Source: a virus
Virus genome (UHGV): UHGV-1365003
Strand: one strand, 5' to 3'
Length of the DNA stretch: 46,453 nt
Below are positions 1,511-17,668 of this stretch, piece by piece (positions within the stretch are counted from its first letter, which is position 1; every line of letters begins with the position of its first letter). The position numbers were made by a program, and so were the translations under genes. The notes beneath the pieces are model-generated. The model was not told where the DNA came from, ran no database searches, and saw nothing but the letters and a program-made list of their open reading frames with translations.

Positions 1511-3840
1511 ATCTCAACCTCATCATTTGTTAATTTGTAAATTATTACGTTGTGAGATGTTCTTTTTGCATTTTCATCAATGCAAATAATACCATCTGAT
1601 AACAACTTCTCTACGCACCTCTCGACATCAGCACGTTTATAACCACCTTCTTTTGCCACCCCTCTAACCATTGCTGTTTTGGTCATTCCTCTCTTCACAT
1701 ATTCTTTAACCATGGAGAAAATACCTTCAATTCGTTCTTCCATAGCTTTAGACTTCGCTCCGGCGATACTGTCAGCACGCATCATCAGATCGCTTGTTGA
1801 TTTAATTGTTAATGCTACCGCATATCTCAAGTGCTCCATGGTTATGACGCCAGTATCGCACGCGAGAATTCCAGCAATCTTTGCCACCTTCACAGCGCAT
1901 CTGTTTATCAATGGGTGATAACCAGTACCATTTTCTACATGCTTTCTTGCCACGGTTTTAATCCATGAGAAGAACTCCTTAGCGAGTTGAGAAACTTCAG
2001 GCGTAGCTTTTATAATCCGTCTTTCTTTTTGACTGATTATTGAGTCTGTCCAGTTTTTGTGCCCAGCCGTTCCGCCATTTATTATTGTTTTTATGGTCAG
2101 TTGCATATCCATAGGTAGATCACAGTAGTTTACGCTTTCGTTTTCATCAGCAATCTCCTGTAACTCCTGCATAATCATTGCGCGCCCCATAAGACCTGAC
2201 TTAATGTTCTCTTCAGTGATAAGGCGCTTAAACTGATCATCAGTAGACACACCAAAGATTGAAAAAAATGGATTCCTTATAGCTCCATCAATTCTGTTTA
2301 TCACATCATCAAACTGACACTTAATGTCAACGGGGTCTGCCTGTATCTCATTTTCCTCAATAGCCATCAACAGCATAGCCTTTCTCTTTTCGAAAGACTT
2401 AATGAAATCCTCAGTAACCCGCTGGTCACAATAAAGAACTTCTGACGTGTAAGCCTCCATGATCGCACCAGCGGTTGCCATGTTGTACTCGCTTACTTTC
2501 TGACCAACAACACTACCAAGTTTTATCCCAATTTCATCCATGATGATATTAAACATCTGGTTAGCGCAAAGACCTTCATATATCGCACGCTCTGAGCGTA
2601 TCTTACCGGCAACTGTCTTACTCAATCCTGAGCAATCAATTATCTTTTGTAGCGCAGCAAGAACATCACCCTTACCAGAACCTGAACCAGCTATACCAAC
2701 AGCAAACAGGTTTGGTAAGGCTTTCCTGTTTGTAAGGTAAATATCAGATGACGCTCCGCAAATCATGGATGCGGCATGCAATGCGGCAAGTGCTGCAATG
2801 TTCTCTCGCTTCTCTGCACAGTTCTTATTAATCCACGCCGTAAGGCGACCAACAAATCCAGGAGGATAACGGACATCAACACTTTTGTACTCTACAGGGC
2901 ATTCACCAACACCCATTGCCATCTCTCGCTCGAAAGACTCAAGTTTCTCAATTTCCTCTGGAGTAGCCTCAAAAGTTACTTTCCTTACCCACCCTCCCTC
3001 TTGCGCGAGATAAACCAGCGTTGCTTCGGTTATCTTTTCGCTAACACCGTCCTTTCCAAAGGAATGCCATTTTGCGTCCATTTCTTCAGCTCTGTACTTG
3101 CTGAACTGCGATGACCACCTATCCCAAAGCTCAAAACCATTGCCTTCTGTAGCTTCGTGGATAGCCATACCCACATGAAGCCATGGGTCATACTCATCAC
3201 CATCTTTGATGTATTTGAGCATATCCTCCATTTCGGCAATGCTGTAATTTTTACTATCAAGCGTGAAAACCTCGTCTTCCGTTCTCTCAGGACGCAACAA
3301 AAGCTCAATAAGTTCAGAAGGGCATTCAGTTATCTCTGAAGGAGAGCCATGCTCAGCTTCATAAAAGTTACCTGACTTATGGAATGAGCCGCAGCCAACA
3401 ACAAAACCAGATGATTTAAAGTCAATACCCTTAAACCTTCTGTCATGAGAGCGCAGCTTTATTCCTTCAGGAAGTTTGTAATAGATGTGGCGACCACCAC
3501 CACCAGTCTTAACAGTAAAGCCAGCTTCGTCAGCAAGCTCTACGTCTAAGGCATCACAAAGCGATTCATATCCATCATTACCTCCGTTGCGTGGATCAAT
3601 ATCAACTACCAGATAACCATTCACAAGGACACCGAATGACTGCAATTGACCATATTCAGCCATATTTTCAATCTGGTCATCAGCCCATATAACTCCAAGC
3701 TGCCAGTTACTCATAACCGGATGCTTGCCGGCAGCATTGCACTCTGGATCACCGCATGTGCAATTGCGGTCGATATCCATTGCATGGATTCCAATAATAG
3801 GGAAGCCACATTTGCGGTAATCTTCATAACCAATCATCAT
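1507..3840 (-). CDS. bifunctional DNA primase-polymerase (PrimPol N-terminal domain) / P-loop helicase (D5/P4-alpha-like) replication protein
   Basis: 777-aa ORF. N-terminus has a Cys/His cluster (CTCGDPEC) and a PrimPol-like region (VVDIDPRNGG). Central Walker A GIAGSGSGKGDV. Large C-terminal helicase-like domain. Adjacent to an iteron/AT-rich region. Confidence 0.8.
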   Translation of the reverse strand: MMIGYEDYRKCGFPIIGIHAMDIDRNCTCGDPECNAAGKHPVMSNWQLGVIWADDQIENMAEYGQLQSFGVLVNGYLVVDIDPRNGGNDGYESLCDALDVELADEAGFTVKTGGGGRHIYYKLPEGIKLRSHDRRFKGIDFKSSGFVVGCGSFHKSGNFYEAEHGSPSEITECPSELIELLLRPERTEDEVFTLDSKNYSIAEMEDMLKYIKDGDEYDPWLHVGMAIHEATEGNGFELWDRWSSQFSKYRAEEMDAKWHSFGKDGVSEKITEATLVYLAQEGGWVRKVTFEATPEEIEKLESFEREMAMGVGECPVEYKSVDVRYPPGFVGRLTAWINKNCAEKRENIAALAALHAASMICGASSDIYLTNRKALPNLFAVGIAGSGSGKGDVLAALQKIIDCSGLSKTVAGKIRSERAIYEGLCANQMFNIIMDEIGIKLGSVVGQKVSEYNMATAGAIMEAYTSEVLYCDQRVTEDFIKSFEKRKAMLLMAIEENEIQADPVDIKCQFDDVINRIDGAIRNPFFSIFGVSTDDQFKRLITEENIKSGLMGRAMIMQELQEIADENESVNYCDLPMDMQLTIKTIINGGTAGHKNWTDSIISQKERRIIKATPEVSQLAKEFFSWIKTVARKHVENGTGYHPLINRCAVKVAKIAGILACDTGVITMEHLRYAVALTIKSTSDLMMRADSIAGAKSKAMEERIEGIFSMVKEYVKRGMTKTAMVRGVAKEGGYKRADVERCVEKLLSDGIICIDENAKRTSHNVIIYKLTNDEVEI

Positions 3841-14768: not shown

Positions 14769-14796
14769 CTTTTATTCCTCACCGTTTGATTGATGT

Positions 14797-14829
14797 AGAT
14801 ACTATGCACCACCGCTCAATCTACGTCAA
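14797..14829 (-). promoter_or_regulatory. promoter with GTTGACGTAGATTGAG element (-10 CATAGT/TAGTAT) for minus-strand island A
   Basis: Minus strand reads gtGTTGACGTAGATTGAGcggtggtgCATAGTATCTACATC. The 16-mer is identical to the one at ~26830. Confidence 0.45.
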
Positions 14830-14872
14830 CACCATTGTGATAGAATTAATCATTATTTGAACAGGAGGCATA

Positions 14873-15151
14873 ATGAAACTATCGCAACGCGGCATGGAGA
14901 CGCTTGGAATCACCGATGCCGTGGATATATCGCCTTACATCACCACTGACACAACGCAGAATCAGTTCGACGCGCTGACAAGCCTTGCCACCGACATCGG
15001 CATTGACGTATTCCGTAAATCAACACTTCTGAAGAAACACAACCTGCGCTGCTTCTCATGTGCTGTTGCGCATTTCATCGTGTGGGGTGAGAAGACTGAC
15101 GACAAAGCTAAGCGCAAAACTGAAAAAGAGGTTTACTGGTATGGCTATTAG
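14873..15151 (+). CDS. GH24 (T4/P22/P21-type) lysozyme-like protein with internal deletion of the catalytic region (probable remnant)
   Basis: AGGAGG RBS. N-terminus MKLSQRGMETL resembles the P22 gp19 N-terminus. C-terminal half ISPYITTDTTQNQFDALTSLATDIGIDVFRKSTLLKK matches the conserved GH24 C-terminal half (NQYDAL..FNIG..F..STLLR). About 45 aa containing the catalytic Asp/Thr region are missing. Confidence 0.6.
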   Translation: MKLSQRGMETLGITDAVDISPYITTDTTQNQFDALTSLATDIGIDVFRKSTLLKKHNLRCFSCAVAHFIVWGEKTDDKAKRKTEKEVYWYGY

Positions 15152-15605
15152 CAAAAACATGAAGGCGTTTCTGGATATGCTGGCGTACAGCGAGGGCACG
15201 GATAACGGGCGACAGAAAACCAATAATCATGGTTATGATGTAATTGTTGGCGGCTCGCTATTTACTGACTACTCAGACCACCCGAGAAAGCTGATTAGCC
15301 TGCCAAAGCTGGGTATCAAATCCACTGCCGCCGGACGCTATCAGGTGCTGGCTAAGTTTTATGACGCGTACAAAAAGCAGTTGCGCCTGCCTGACTTCTC
15401 CCCCGCATCGCAGGACGCCATTGCAATGCAGCTAATCCGTGAATGCAAAGCAACCGCAGATATTGAGGCTGGTCGCATTGCCGATGCCATCCATAAATGC
15501 CGTTCCCGCTGGGCTTCGTTGCCGGGCGCTGGCTATGGTCAGCATGAGCAGAAACTGGATAAGCTGATTCAGGCATACAAGGCCGCTGGCGGAGGTGTGG
15601 CATGA
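15141..15605 (+). CDS. R: endolysin, lambda R-type lytic transglycosylase
   Basis: High similarity to lambda R: KAFLDMLAYSEGTDNGRQKT.NHGYDVIVGG.LFTDYSDHPRKL...AGRYQ...WASLPGAGYGQ.E.K.D.LI..YKAAGG. AAGAGG RBS. Confidence 0.9.
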   Translation: MAISKNMKAFLDMLAYSEGTDNGRQKTNNHGYDVIVGGSLFTDYSDHPRKLISLPKLGIKSTAAGRYQVLAKFYDAYKKQLRLPDFSPASQDAIAMQLIRECKATADIEAGRIADAIHKCRSRWASLPGAGYGQHEQKLDKLIQAYKAAGGGVA

Positions 15606-15841
15606 AAAAGCTAAGCAACTGGCTGCTCGGCGCGTGGATTTCGTTCTGCTCGCTGTTGCAGCTATGGCCTGATGCAATGATGCATGTATGGGTAATGATG
15701 CCGGATGACCTGAAATCAGCACTACCGCCAATCGTGGTTAAAGGGGTGAGCTATTCAATCATGCTGGTTGGTATTCTCACCAAAATGCACGGCATGAGGA
15801 AGGAAAACCGGAGGTTGCGCAATGATGTCGATTCTCGCTAA
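15602..15841 (+). CDS. putative holin (two TM helices, class II-like)
   Basis: 79 aa. TM1 WLLGAWISFCSLLQLW. TM2 VSYSIMLVGILTKM. Charged C-terminus. ATGA overlap with the endolysin stop. Located between endolysin and spanins. Confidence 0.5.
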   Translation: MKKLSNWLLGAWISFCSLLQLWPDAMMHVWVMMPDDLKSALPPIVVKGVSYSIMLVGILTKMHGMRKENRRLRNDVDSR

Positions 15842-16319
15842 ATACTGGCGACCGCTGGCAATTATTATAATTGTTGCCGCTGGCGCGCTGTGGGCAGCAA
15901 ATAAAGTATCAAGCTACGGCGAACAGCAATACGCCGCCGGGTATGCAAAAGCAGTCGCCGAACAGAAGGCCGCAGACGAACAAGAGGAGCAACGACGCAA
16001 TGCAGAACTGCAAAAGATTCAGGCCGACGCACAGCAAAGGATTGACGCTGCGCGCAATGACGCTGTCAATGCTGCTGCTAAGTCTGGCAGGTTGCAGCAA
16101 CAGCTCGCAAATATCCGCAAGCAGCTCATCGGATATTCCACCGCTGAGTCCATTGGCAATCCAGCCGCAAAAACCGGAGTTTTGCTTGGAAACGTGCTCA
16201 GCAAATCTGTCGAAAGAAATCGACAACTGGCAGATTACGCTGACAGGGCAAGAGAAGCAGGATTAGCGTGTGAGGCACAGTACAATTCATTGAGGGCGGG
16301 GAATGCTAAGCAGAGATAA
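15822..16319 (+). CDS. Rz: i-spanin (Rz-like)
   Basis: N-terminal TM (LAIIIIVAAGALWAA) followed by a long Ala/Gln-rich coiled coil. Position after endolysin/holin. Confidence 0.8.
   Translation: MMSILAKYWRPLAIIIIVAAGALWAANKVSSYGEQQYAAGYAKAVAEQKAADEQEEQRRNAELQKIQADAQQRIDAARNDAVNAAAKSGRLQQQLANIRKQLIGYSTAESIGNPAAKTGVLLGNVLSKSVERNRQLADYADRAREAGLACEAQYNSLRAGNAKQR
16057..16266 (+). CDS. Rz1: o-spanin (Rz1-like lipoprotein) embedded in +1 frame of Rz
   Basis: MTLSMLLLSLAGCSNSS has a signal peptide plus LAGC lipobox. Pro-rich mature part. Entirely inside Rz. Confidence 0.7.
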   Translation: MTLSMLLLSLAGCSNSSQISASSSSDIPPLSPLAIQPQKPEFCLETCSANLSKEIDNWQITLTGQEKQD

Positions 16320-16447
16320 GCGAGAAGAGTATGACAAGATGGCTTCTGATGTGGCAAGTGGTCGCGCTGGTTATCAGTCTGCGGTGAAATGCAGGCTAAG
16401 CAAATCACCAAAGAAATGCTATGGAAAACCACCTGAATCACTGCAAT

Positions 16448-16480
16448 AAAAAAGCCCCGTAATGGGGCTTGTGTTTAATT
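16448..16480. terminator. bidirectional hairpin terminator AAGCCCCgtaatGGGGCTT
   Basis: Lies between the convergent lysis cassette (+) and minus-strand island B. A-tract upstream and T-rich downstream. Confidence 0.65.
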
Positions 16481-17179: not shown

Positions 17180-17668
17180 TTACTTTAATGCTCCGTGATT
17201 TTTATGGAAACAATATTTTTCCTCAGCTGCTTTTCTGCATTCTGCAGCCATTGACAAGTTTGAGAATCTGCCAAGCGCAATCTGCTTTCCGTTCACGGCA
17301 ATCTTTGCATACCATTTCTTACCCTTGTTATCCCAACTAACTCCGACAACATTACTCGTGTTATCAGATCGCATAGAAAGATTCTTAGCGTTCTGCTTTC
17401 TGCTTACCAATCTGAGATTCTCAATCCTATTATCATCACGAATGTGGTTTATATGATCAATCTCCATCCCCTCTGGTATCTCACCATTGTGCATTCCCCA
17501 AATTATTCTATGCATCAGTCGCACTTTTCCAAAGCAATGAACCTGCATGTACCCATTACCTGCCATGCTTCCTGCCAGCCTCCCTATTTTCATGTTTCTG
17601 TTTGTTTTTATCTTCCAATATAGCAACCCATCACGGTATTCGAACACATCATTCCAATCCATCATCAC
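17180..17668 (-). CDS. HNH homing endonuclease with AP2 domain (paralog 3)
   Basis: MMMDWNDVFEYRDGLLYWKIK parallels the 6723 paralog. HNH motif region IDHINHIRDDNRIENLRLV. AP2-like segment GVSWDNKGKKWYAKIAVNGKQIALGRFSNLSMAA. Confidence 0.85.
   Translation of the reverse strand: MMMDWNDVFEYRDGLLYWKIKTNRNMKIGRLAGSMAGNGYMQVHCFGKVRLMHRIIWGMHNGEIPEGMEIDHINHIRDDNRIENLRLVSRKQNAKNLSMRSDNTSNVVGVSWDNKGKKWYAKIAVNGKQIALGRFSNLSMAAECRKAAEEKYCFHKNHGALK

Follow-up and report, generated by a model that had tools for sequence, protein, structure and literature searches.

A lysozyme-derived gene at the head of a siphophage lysis cassette is under purifying selection and may encode a non-catalytic accessory protein

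Organisation of the lysis cassette

We analysed the virus genome UHGV-1365003, a DNA stretch of 46,453 nucleotides (the window; 46.5 kb) that is in essence the complete genome of a siphophage in the Skatevirus/Macdonaldcampvirus group. The window shares about 90-92% nucleotide identity with Shigella phage Sf11, with the Salmonella phages VSt472 and KFS-SE2, with Vi II-E1 and with the E. coli phages Bas77-81. Its lysis cassette lies on the + strand and has a block of divergently transcribed genes at one border and a bidirectional terminator at the other. The first gene of the cassette, an open reading frame of 92 codons (ORF92), appears to encode the non-catalytic half of a GH24 lysozyme, is maintained by selection on its protein and is the subject of this work. 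The cassette contains the following features, with transmembrane abbreviated as TM.

14769..14872, + strand: intergenic control region of the cassette, including AGGAGG at 14863-14868; this is the 5' recombination flank common to relatives with an intact GH24 gene
14873..15151, + strand: ORF92, 92 aa, GH24 derivative in which helix A and the C-terminal lobe remain and the N-terminal catalytic lobe is missing
15128..15131, + strand: GAGG Shine-Dalgarno of the GH104 gene, within the 3' end of ORF92 and 9 nt before the ATG at 15141, read from the sequence
15141..15605, + strand: soluble lambda-R-type lytic transglycosylase of family GH104, the presumed working endolysin (PHROG 90, E 1e-56)
15602..15841, + strand: two-TM holin candidate of 79 aa, DUF7940 (PF25612, E 6.6e-9; PHROG 13249 'holin', E 3e-51)
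15822..16319, + strand: Rz-type inner-membrane spanin, DUF2514, with an N-terminal TM segment at residues 10-27 (PF10721, E 7e-30; PHROG 312)
16000..16266, + strand: Rz1-type outer-membrane lipoprotein spanin, inside Rz in the +1 frame, lipobox LLSLAGC (PHROG 11621, E 5e-35)
16452..16470, both strands: bidirectional intrinsic-terminator-like hairpin that closes the cassette (terminator scan; annotated equivalently in phage Skate)

Reading the sequence directly placed the AGGAGG 4 nt from the ORF92 ATG at 14873. A simple consensus scan for sigma-70 promoters found none on the + strand of the control region. A good Shine-Dalgarno sequence was present at every gene of the cassette, so strong translation signals are not peculiar to ORF92. 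The genes are tightly packed, with the GH104 gene overlapping ORF92 by 11 nt and the holin gene start overlapping the GH104 stop (ATGA). In phage Skate a ribosome-binding site (RBS) is annotated at the position equivalent to the GAGG inside ORF92.

The GH104 protein matched lambda lysozyme (1AM7/3D3D) with an E-value of 3e-61 over residues 3-153 and has kept the catalytic Glu of the SEGT motif (AYSEGTD), and this full-length homology to lambda R together with the Glu places it in the family. Its nearest relatives outside the phage group were rV5-like enzymes (69-70% identity) and lambda R itself (66%). No N-terminal hydrophobic segment was found in its hydropathy profile. Upstream of its ATG the GH104 frame stays open over 27 codons, beginning with a GTG at 15060 (15060-15140, +1 relative to ORF92), and the same is seen in phage LPST10.

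The 79-aa protein has a moderate hydrophobic segment at about residues 7-23, a strong one at 44-60 and a charged C-terminal tail HGMRKENRRLRNDVDSR. It is small, has two TM segments and adjoins the endolysin, as expected of a class II holin, which is its predicted function. The homologue in phage Skate was annotated 'class II holin' by the curators of the Center for Phage Technology, and no experimental report on DUF7940 proteins was found in the literature. The order endolysin, holin, Rz/Rz1 was the same throughout the group including the members with an intact GH24 enzyme. By this comparison a holin placed after the endolysin is ordinary and ancestral to the phage group, and no consequence of endolysin replacement. 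Downstream, the type II inner-membrane protein Rz and the embedded lipobox lipoprotein Rz1 together make up a two-component spanin; the Rz1 signal sequence and lipobox are visible in the translation, and homologous coding sequences are annotated in Vi II-E1 and Skate. An earlier note on this DNA, made from the letters alone, had described an AGGAGG RBS before the first ORF, a lambda-R-like enzyme immediately after it and a two-TM, 79-aa holin-like gene between the endolysin and Rz/Rz1, and all three descriptions held. The similarities behind these assignments are all much stronger than chance would give.

ORF92 as helix A and the C-terminal lobe of a GH24 lysozyme

To define the relationship of ORF92 to GH24 enzymes we compared it to family profiles and to intact relatives. 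The Pfam profile PF00959 (Phage_lysozyme) matched ORF92 with 38.4 bits (cut-off 22.3; E 1.8e-9), covering only positions 55-110 of its 125. PHROG 10457, a 95-aa profile labelled 'endolysin', matched end to end (E 7e-41). A search of relatives for an intact counterpart returned syntenic GH24 genes in Salmonella phage D10 and Klebsiella phage MK54 (vB_KpnS_MK54), and these 145-146-aa enzymes at the same genomic position were used as the reference for mapping the deletion. In both phages the holin gene and Rz come directly after the intact GH24 gene. ORF92 matched the D10 gene by tblastn with an E-value of 4.6e-19 and was 43-52% identical to the intact syntenic enzymes over the C-lobe. Aligned to them, it has an in-frame gap of 50 consecutive residues, the exact borders of which are ambiguous within about 7 residues, and a second gap of 5 residues near the C-terminus in the loop following a conserved Trp. 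The larger gap takes out the catalytic Asp and Thr, the whole N-terminal lobe and most of the connecting helix. The earlier note had read the ORF as a GH24 remnant lacking the catalytic Asp/Thr, with about 45 residues missing in frame. The assignment and the frame were borne out, and the size was an underestimate that also missed the second gap.

The third catalytic residue is gone as well. The catalytic-Glu column holds a D in ORF92 and a D, N, G or E across the short forms and is not conserved. The intact enzymes carry an 'AYNIG' motif, and every short form has TD, TS, TA, AS, AA or AE in place of the (Y/F)N pair of its AYN. The AYN motif and the shortened loop presumably correspond to the substrate-contact regions of T4 lysozyme around Gln105 and residues 139-144. 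ORF92 thus has neither the catalytic Glu/Asp/Thr of an active GH24 enzyme (T4 E11/D20/T26) nor the two-lobe fold with a cleft. Together these alignments support reading ORF92 as a catalytically gutted GH24 derivative.

An AlphaFold2 model of ORF92 was compact and all-helical, with six helices (pLDDT 91.2, pTM 0.85) and without the beta-sheet lobe. The top Foldseek matches of this model were GH24 endolysins with TM-scores of about 0.7 when normalised to the query and about 0.35-0.5 when normalised to the target, and P22 lysozyme matched over 74 columns with a root-mean-square deviation of 2.3 A. The part retained is helix A plus the C-terminal lobe, which equals the C-terminal subdomain of T4 lysozyme (residues 75-164 plus 1-12). 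In T4 lysozyme this subdomain (75-164 together with helix A, 1-12) folds on its own (bioRxiv 10.1101/353649). A split lysozyme with the N-lobe encoded elsewhere was considered and rejected, as tblastn of the window returned nothing. There is also no signal-anchor-release (SAR) or other membrane segment in ORF92: the maximum 17-residue Kyte-Doolittle hydropathy was 0.85, at residues 56-72 and not at the N-terminus.

Two sequence features are common to the short forms. The motif KHNxxCxxC (residues 55-63 with His56, Cys60 and Cys63; window 15037-15063) was invariant in three diverged short types, A (that of the window), B and C, and in the syntenic intact GH24 enzymes, and was absent from other GH24s (e.g. 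6ET6-like enzymes and P0040-P0044). The CxxC opens a predicted helix, and this placement is suggestive of a site for metal binding or redox chemistry. In addition, the short forms share a new aromatic tail, Y(W/Y)YGY.

The representative search also returned other short GH24 matches. In three short metagenomic proteins of 101-110 aa, P0060 (L079 120-425), P0122 (L084 3001-3333) and P0135 (L085 2150-2464), GH24 helix A is apparently joined directly to the C-lobe. These proteins are unrelated to the ORF92 clade, one of them follows a 1722-aa protein, and they may be independent lobe-only derivatives or artefacts. The remaining short matches were mostly N-terminally truncated gene calls.

Selection, diversity and module exchange

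To assess selection on ORF92 we took the four genes of the cassette from each of 37 related loci and counted changes on a neighbour-joining tree within type A, which comprises 33 distinct ORF92 sequences. Length was 92-93 codons in all 37 distinct natural sequences and 92 codons in all 33 of type A. The type A tree carried 269.5 synonymous and 116.5 non-synonymous changes in ORF92, giving an omega (non-synonymous over synonymous change) of 0.124 (p 5e-88 against neutrality). The same analysis gave 0.110 for the holin gene, 0.259 for Rz and 0.047 for GH104. Variable sites were distributed 29/18/77% over codon positions 1/2/3. Omega reached its lowest value, 0.063, in codons 25-62 at the centre of the gene; this part lies away from both junctions and is free of overlap with other ORFs. 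Synonymous divergence (pS) was 0.17 in codons 73-93 and 0.31-0.41 in codons 25-72; the lower value fits extra constraints at the 3' end, where the GH104 Shine-Dalgarno lies. ORF92 is therefore under purifying selection at the protein level, about as strong as that on the holin. An omega this low, and lowest centrally, argues that ORF92 is neither a decaying remnant nor a frame held open merely for translational coupling.

The signs of a pseudogene, an omega near 1 and frameshifts or stops among relatives, were not seen in ORF92. The sole frameshift in an ORF92 homologue outside error-laden assemblies was in a laboratory CRISPR-escape mutant. Two frameshifted homologues, P0029 and P0033, return to frame before the stop and were considered as evidence for coupling only; they were dropped as they come from error-prone assemblies with broken neighbour genes throughout.

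Large-database searches identified two further short types, type B with 53-57% identity and type C with 36% identity to ORF92. A second scan of viral contigs, made with the holin, gave the same contigs as the first one. Types A, B and C all share the 50-aa and 5-aa gaps, KHNxxCxxC and the aromatic tail, and the parsimonious reading of the alignments is that one ancient deletion event would lie behind all short types. Between types A and B pS was saturated (0.74) and the non-synonymous divergence (pN) was 0.29, with flanking genes that had diverged no more than within type A. In a sliding comparison this divergence was confined exactly to ORF92 (14873-15150 against loci L036-L038), with 48-78% nucleotide identity inside and 90-100% immediately outside. 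Such an exact gene-sized replacement looks like maintained dimorphism or repeated allele exchange at ORF92 alone.

Type C was found on a syntenic 45-kb contig with the order short GH24 gene, GH108 endolysin with a PG_binding_3 domain, DUF7940 holin and spanins, the short gene overlapping the GH108 gene by ATGA. Its position beside GH108 implies that the half-lysozyme outlived at least one change of catalytic partner.

Phage D10 carries its intact GH24 gene exactly where the window has ORF92 and GH104, between flanks that are 90-96% identical in nucleotides. Identity between D10 and the window was about 90% through the promoter (the 14801-14900 stretch), the RBS and the first codons, fell to near zero in the endolysin slot and stood at 96% as soon as the holin gene began. 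This profile identifies the intact GH24 gene and the ORF92-GH104 pair as alternative modules at one slot. It supports endolysin replacement by recombination at the cassette, which the earlier note had proposed. In the phage database ORF92 DNA was present in 135 phage records and the GH104 DNA of the window in 138.

Genes of the HNH_3 homing-endonuclease type were found at variable positions around the cassette (window 17180-17668, - strand; L016 1921-2400; L036 6898-7410; L077 2464-2988), and in LPST10 an HNH gene lies immediately upstream of the cassette promoter. These genes may promote sharp module swaps at the cassette. Two further observations concern its 3' border. In the window a 48-aa ORF at 16303-16449 (+ strand) overlaps the end of Rz and reaches the terminator, and it had no family match. 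In the relative L083, which has an intact-GH24 cassette, a gene of the Acb2/Tad1-hairpin family (anti-CBASS/Thoeris sponge family) lies just 3' of the cassette at 3228-3512 (- strand).

The behaviour of ORF92 under experimental genome reduction was assessed using the published mutants of phage seszw, whose ORF92 is 95.7% identical to that of the window. Iterative CRISPR genome reduction of seszw showed 53 of 81 genes to be removable in populations, with 34 absent or disrupted in sequenced isolates (PMC9825161). ORF92 DNA was kept in all 70 seszw-lineage records (the wild type and 69 sequenced genome-reduced mutants). The 35,993-bp mutant had lost most of the neighbouring genes and kept genes 75-78 (ORF92, GH104, holin and Rz). 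One viable, large-plaque pick, seszw_30L, has a 1-nt deletion at codon 57 that scrambles the C-terminal third of ORF92. In this mutant residues 1-56 of ORF92 are fused to GH104 through the open +1 frame, giving a 243-aa product.

A proposed accessory role and its precedents

We favour, with moderate confidence, the explanation that ORF92 is an exapted, non-catalytic accessory protein derived from the C-lobe and helix A of a GH24 enzyme, kept by selection and acting in lysis by binding. The ancestral cassette would have consisted of a GH24 endolysin, the DUF7940 holin and Rz/Rz1. In one lineage the whole N-lobe, with its beta-sheet and the Asp and Thr of the active site, would have been lost to a single in-frame deletion. 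Loss of the catalytic Glu, and of those C-lobe residues aligned with substrate contacts, would have come later. Muralytic activity would then have been supplied by an unrelated enzyme gene directly downstream, GH104 here and GH108 in a distant relative, while the half-lysozyme was kept as the first and presumably well-translated gene of the cassette. As ORF92 has no signal or membrane segment, its product would be expected to stay in the cytoplasm until the holin fires. It would act through binding and not through catalysis, and its likeliest role would be to modulate lysis timing or the function of the holin or endolysin. Alternatively, it could carry out a second function that is also performed by the C-lobe of the intact GH24 enzymes of the group. 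A more speculative version, which we think rather unlikely, holds that these GH24 endolysins are bifunctional: their C-lobe, besides its part in the catalytic cleft, would have a non-enzymatic role, e.g. in controlling the DUF7940 holin or the timing of lysis from the cytoplasm, perhaps via the His/CxxC residues, and would have been kept alone after the handover to GH104 or GH108. ORF92 would in that case constitute a new class of soluble lysis regulator, built from half of a catalytic domain.

Several observations weigh against an accessory role in lysis. Intact ORF92 is dispensable for plaque formation in the laboratory, since seszw_30L is viable though frameshifted. Dispensability of this kind would, by analogy, be typical of accessory lysis regulators. 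ORF92 is hard to remove cleanly, and polarity on the expression of GH104 could, as an alternative to function, be part of why the reduced mutants retain it. In Mantel tests within type A, ORF92 co-varied with neither the holin nor GH104; the only signal obtained (r 0.30) came from the split between types A and B. Another DUF7940 holin, which shares 57% identity with that of the window, sits in a cassette that has a PF11860 muramidase but lacks any GH24 lobe within 2.5 kb, so the holin has no strict need for the lobe. The data show the homology, the deletion map, the loss of catalytic residues, the fold, purifying selection, module swapping and persistence beside two endolysin families; we infer the expression level, the cellular location, the mode of action by binding and the link to lysis timing.

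We had considered the rule that a GH24 lobe always accompanies a DUF7940 holin. It holds in records from Salmonella, Klebsiella, Escherichia, Shigella, Vibrio and Aeromonas, where the counts match, and was rejected as it is broken by loci L081 and L082 and probably by BcepNazgul. In the PF11860/DUF7940 cassette of L081 the first gene (1532-1921), in place of the GH24 lobe, encodes a 129-aa protein with one TM segment. This might be a different accessory or regulatory protein in the same first-gene position.

Four other explanations of ORF92 were weighed against the accessory role. The first is a trans-acting peptidoglycan-binding helper, in which the C-lobe would bind murein (glycan or peptide stem) after holin release and assist the single-domain GH104 or GH108 enzyme. 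ORF92 always accompanies a catalytic endolysin, as such a helper should, and the C-terminal lobe of T4 lysozyme holds part of the groove for the substrate as well as the contacts to the peptide stem. However, the (Y/F)N pair is replaced in every short form, the loop after the Trp is 5 residues shorter and the GH108 partner has its own PG_binding_3 domain. Because the positions aligned with substrate contacts are replaced or deleted in all short forms and GH108 brings its own binding domain, we lean towards an accessory or regulatory role in lysis at the protein level and consider the helper improbable.

The second is that ORF92 is a translated leader, kept for translational coupling, RBS unmasking or mRNA stability of the downstream endolysin gene with its amino acids idle. 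The overlaps are consistent with this, as the GH104 RBS and start lie within the ORF92 3' end with an 11-nt overlap, type C has its ATGA overlap and pS is reduced at the 3' end. The CRISPR-escape mutant also kept translation into GH104 rather than losing the gene, and none of the 69 genome-reduced mutants has deleted it. However, coupling selects for an open frame and not for amino acids, and omega was lowest (0.06) in codons 25-62 far from the junctions, where pS was high (0.31-0.41). The GH24 core residues, KHNxxCxxC and the new tail are moreover conserved down to 36% identity, and a confident compact fold is predicted. A pure leader is quite improbable on these grounds.

The third is the vestigial fossil that the earlier note had seen in ORF92, a decaying leftover of a replaced endolysin expressed merely through an inherited promoter and RBS. 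The loss of all catalytic residues, the unrelated intact endolysin that comes next and the viable frameshift mutant would suit a fossil. Decay is contradicted by an omega of 0.12 despite about 270 synonymous changes, by natural isolates without stops or frameshifts, by three short types with the same length and motifs down to 36% identity and by the persistence of the gene beside a second endolysin family (GH108), and we regard the fossil as very improbable. The earlier note had allowed for a remnant with a SAR-like or regulatory role; the hydropathy maximum of 0.85 speaks against the former, and selection favours a retained role.

The last, that ORF92 is still an active small muramidase, is hardly credible. 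It is implied by public annotation ('endolysin/glycosidase; has Ex5Dx8T motif' for Skate, and 'endolysin' for RefSeq and PHROGs), and the window spacing E9-x8-D18-x5-T24 happens to mimic the T4 triad E11-x8-D20-x5-T26. But this pseudo-motif is not conserved: E9 varies within type A, and in type B the spacing is E10-x7-D18 and the next position is S or R. The true Glu column is D, N, G or E. The beta-sheet lobe, which makes up one wall of the active-site cleft, is missing, and no N-lobe is encoded elsewhere in the window.

If ORF92 does regulate lysis as the accessory reading proposes, it would represent a regulator of a new type, and also a natural case of a catalytic domain split at a folding-subdomain boundary with one half reused. 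On this evidence the labels 'endolysin', 'lysozyme' and 'endolysin/glycosidase' on ORF92 homologues in more than 130 genomes (e.g. Skate CPT_Skate_015, L073 772-1050; NC_010495, NC_0546xx) appear to be a systematic misannotation. This calls for caution when 'endolysins' are cloned from these Salmonella, E. coli and Shigella phages as antibacterials, as the ORF92 gene is predicted to encode no enzyme. The system is tractable, with the relatives Bas77-80 growing on E. coli K-12. In the literature on DUF7940, Skatevirus endolysins and the Vi II-E1 lysozyme no discussion of the ORF92 gene was found. The 'two endolysins' of Jerseyvirus S10 (PMC9677904) belong to a different, non-homologous cassette, and PMC11180984 was likewise not relevant.

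The closest comparison for ORF92 is with the intact syntenic GH24 enzymes of D10 and MK54. Like them it is the first gene of the cassette, carries KHNxxCxxC and has the same promoter/RBS flank. Unlike them it lacks the N-lobe (about 50 aa), the Glu/Asp/Thr triad, AYN and 5 loop residues, adds the aromatic tail and always stands beside another enzyme gene. ORF92 comprises the same structural unit as the engineered C-terminal fragment of T4 lysozyme, helix A plus the C-terminal helical lobe. That fragment is a folding-study construct without a biological role, whereas ORF92 is a natural, selected gene in which helix A is still N-terminal.

The usual reading of a phage lysis cassette is holin, endolysin and spanin, and the few accessory factors recognised come mostly from the genetics of some model phages. 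There are partial precedents for ORF92. TcdL of Clostridioides difficile is a truncated, non-catalytic endolysin derivative conserved beside the holin-like TcdE and is a proposed protein binder. Both are endolysin fragments beside a holin, but TcdL derives from another endolysin family and belongs to a bacterial toxin-export locus and not to a phage lysis cassette that has a working endolysin. Endolysins of Gram-positive phages (CTP1L, CD27L, Lys170) produce free cell-wall-binding domains from internal translation starts that assemble with the full-length enzyme. These products and ORF92 are non-catalytic and accompany an enzyme; ORF92 differs in being a separate gene, in being half of a catalytic domain and in having non-homologous enzymes as partners. 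In SpmX of Caulobacter and Asticcacaulis, which was among the fold and family matches of ORF92, a GH24 domain is reused as a localisation factor. SpmX, unlike ORF92, has a complete two-lobe domain in a bacterial membrane protein, and the sequence kinship is at the family level only. T4 RIII (a cytoplasmic antiholin) and P1 LydB are small soluble lysis regulators that are non-essential in the laboratory yet conserved. The likeness of ORF92 to these two is a functional analogy only, with no relationship in sequence or fold.

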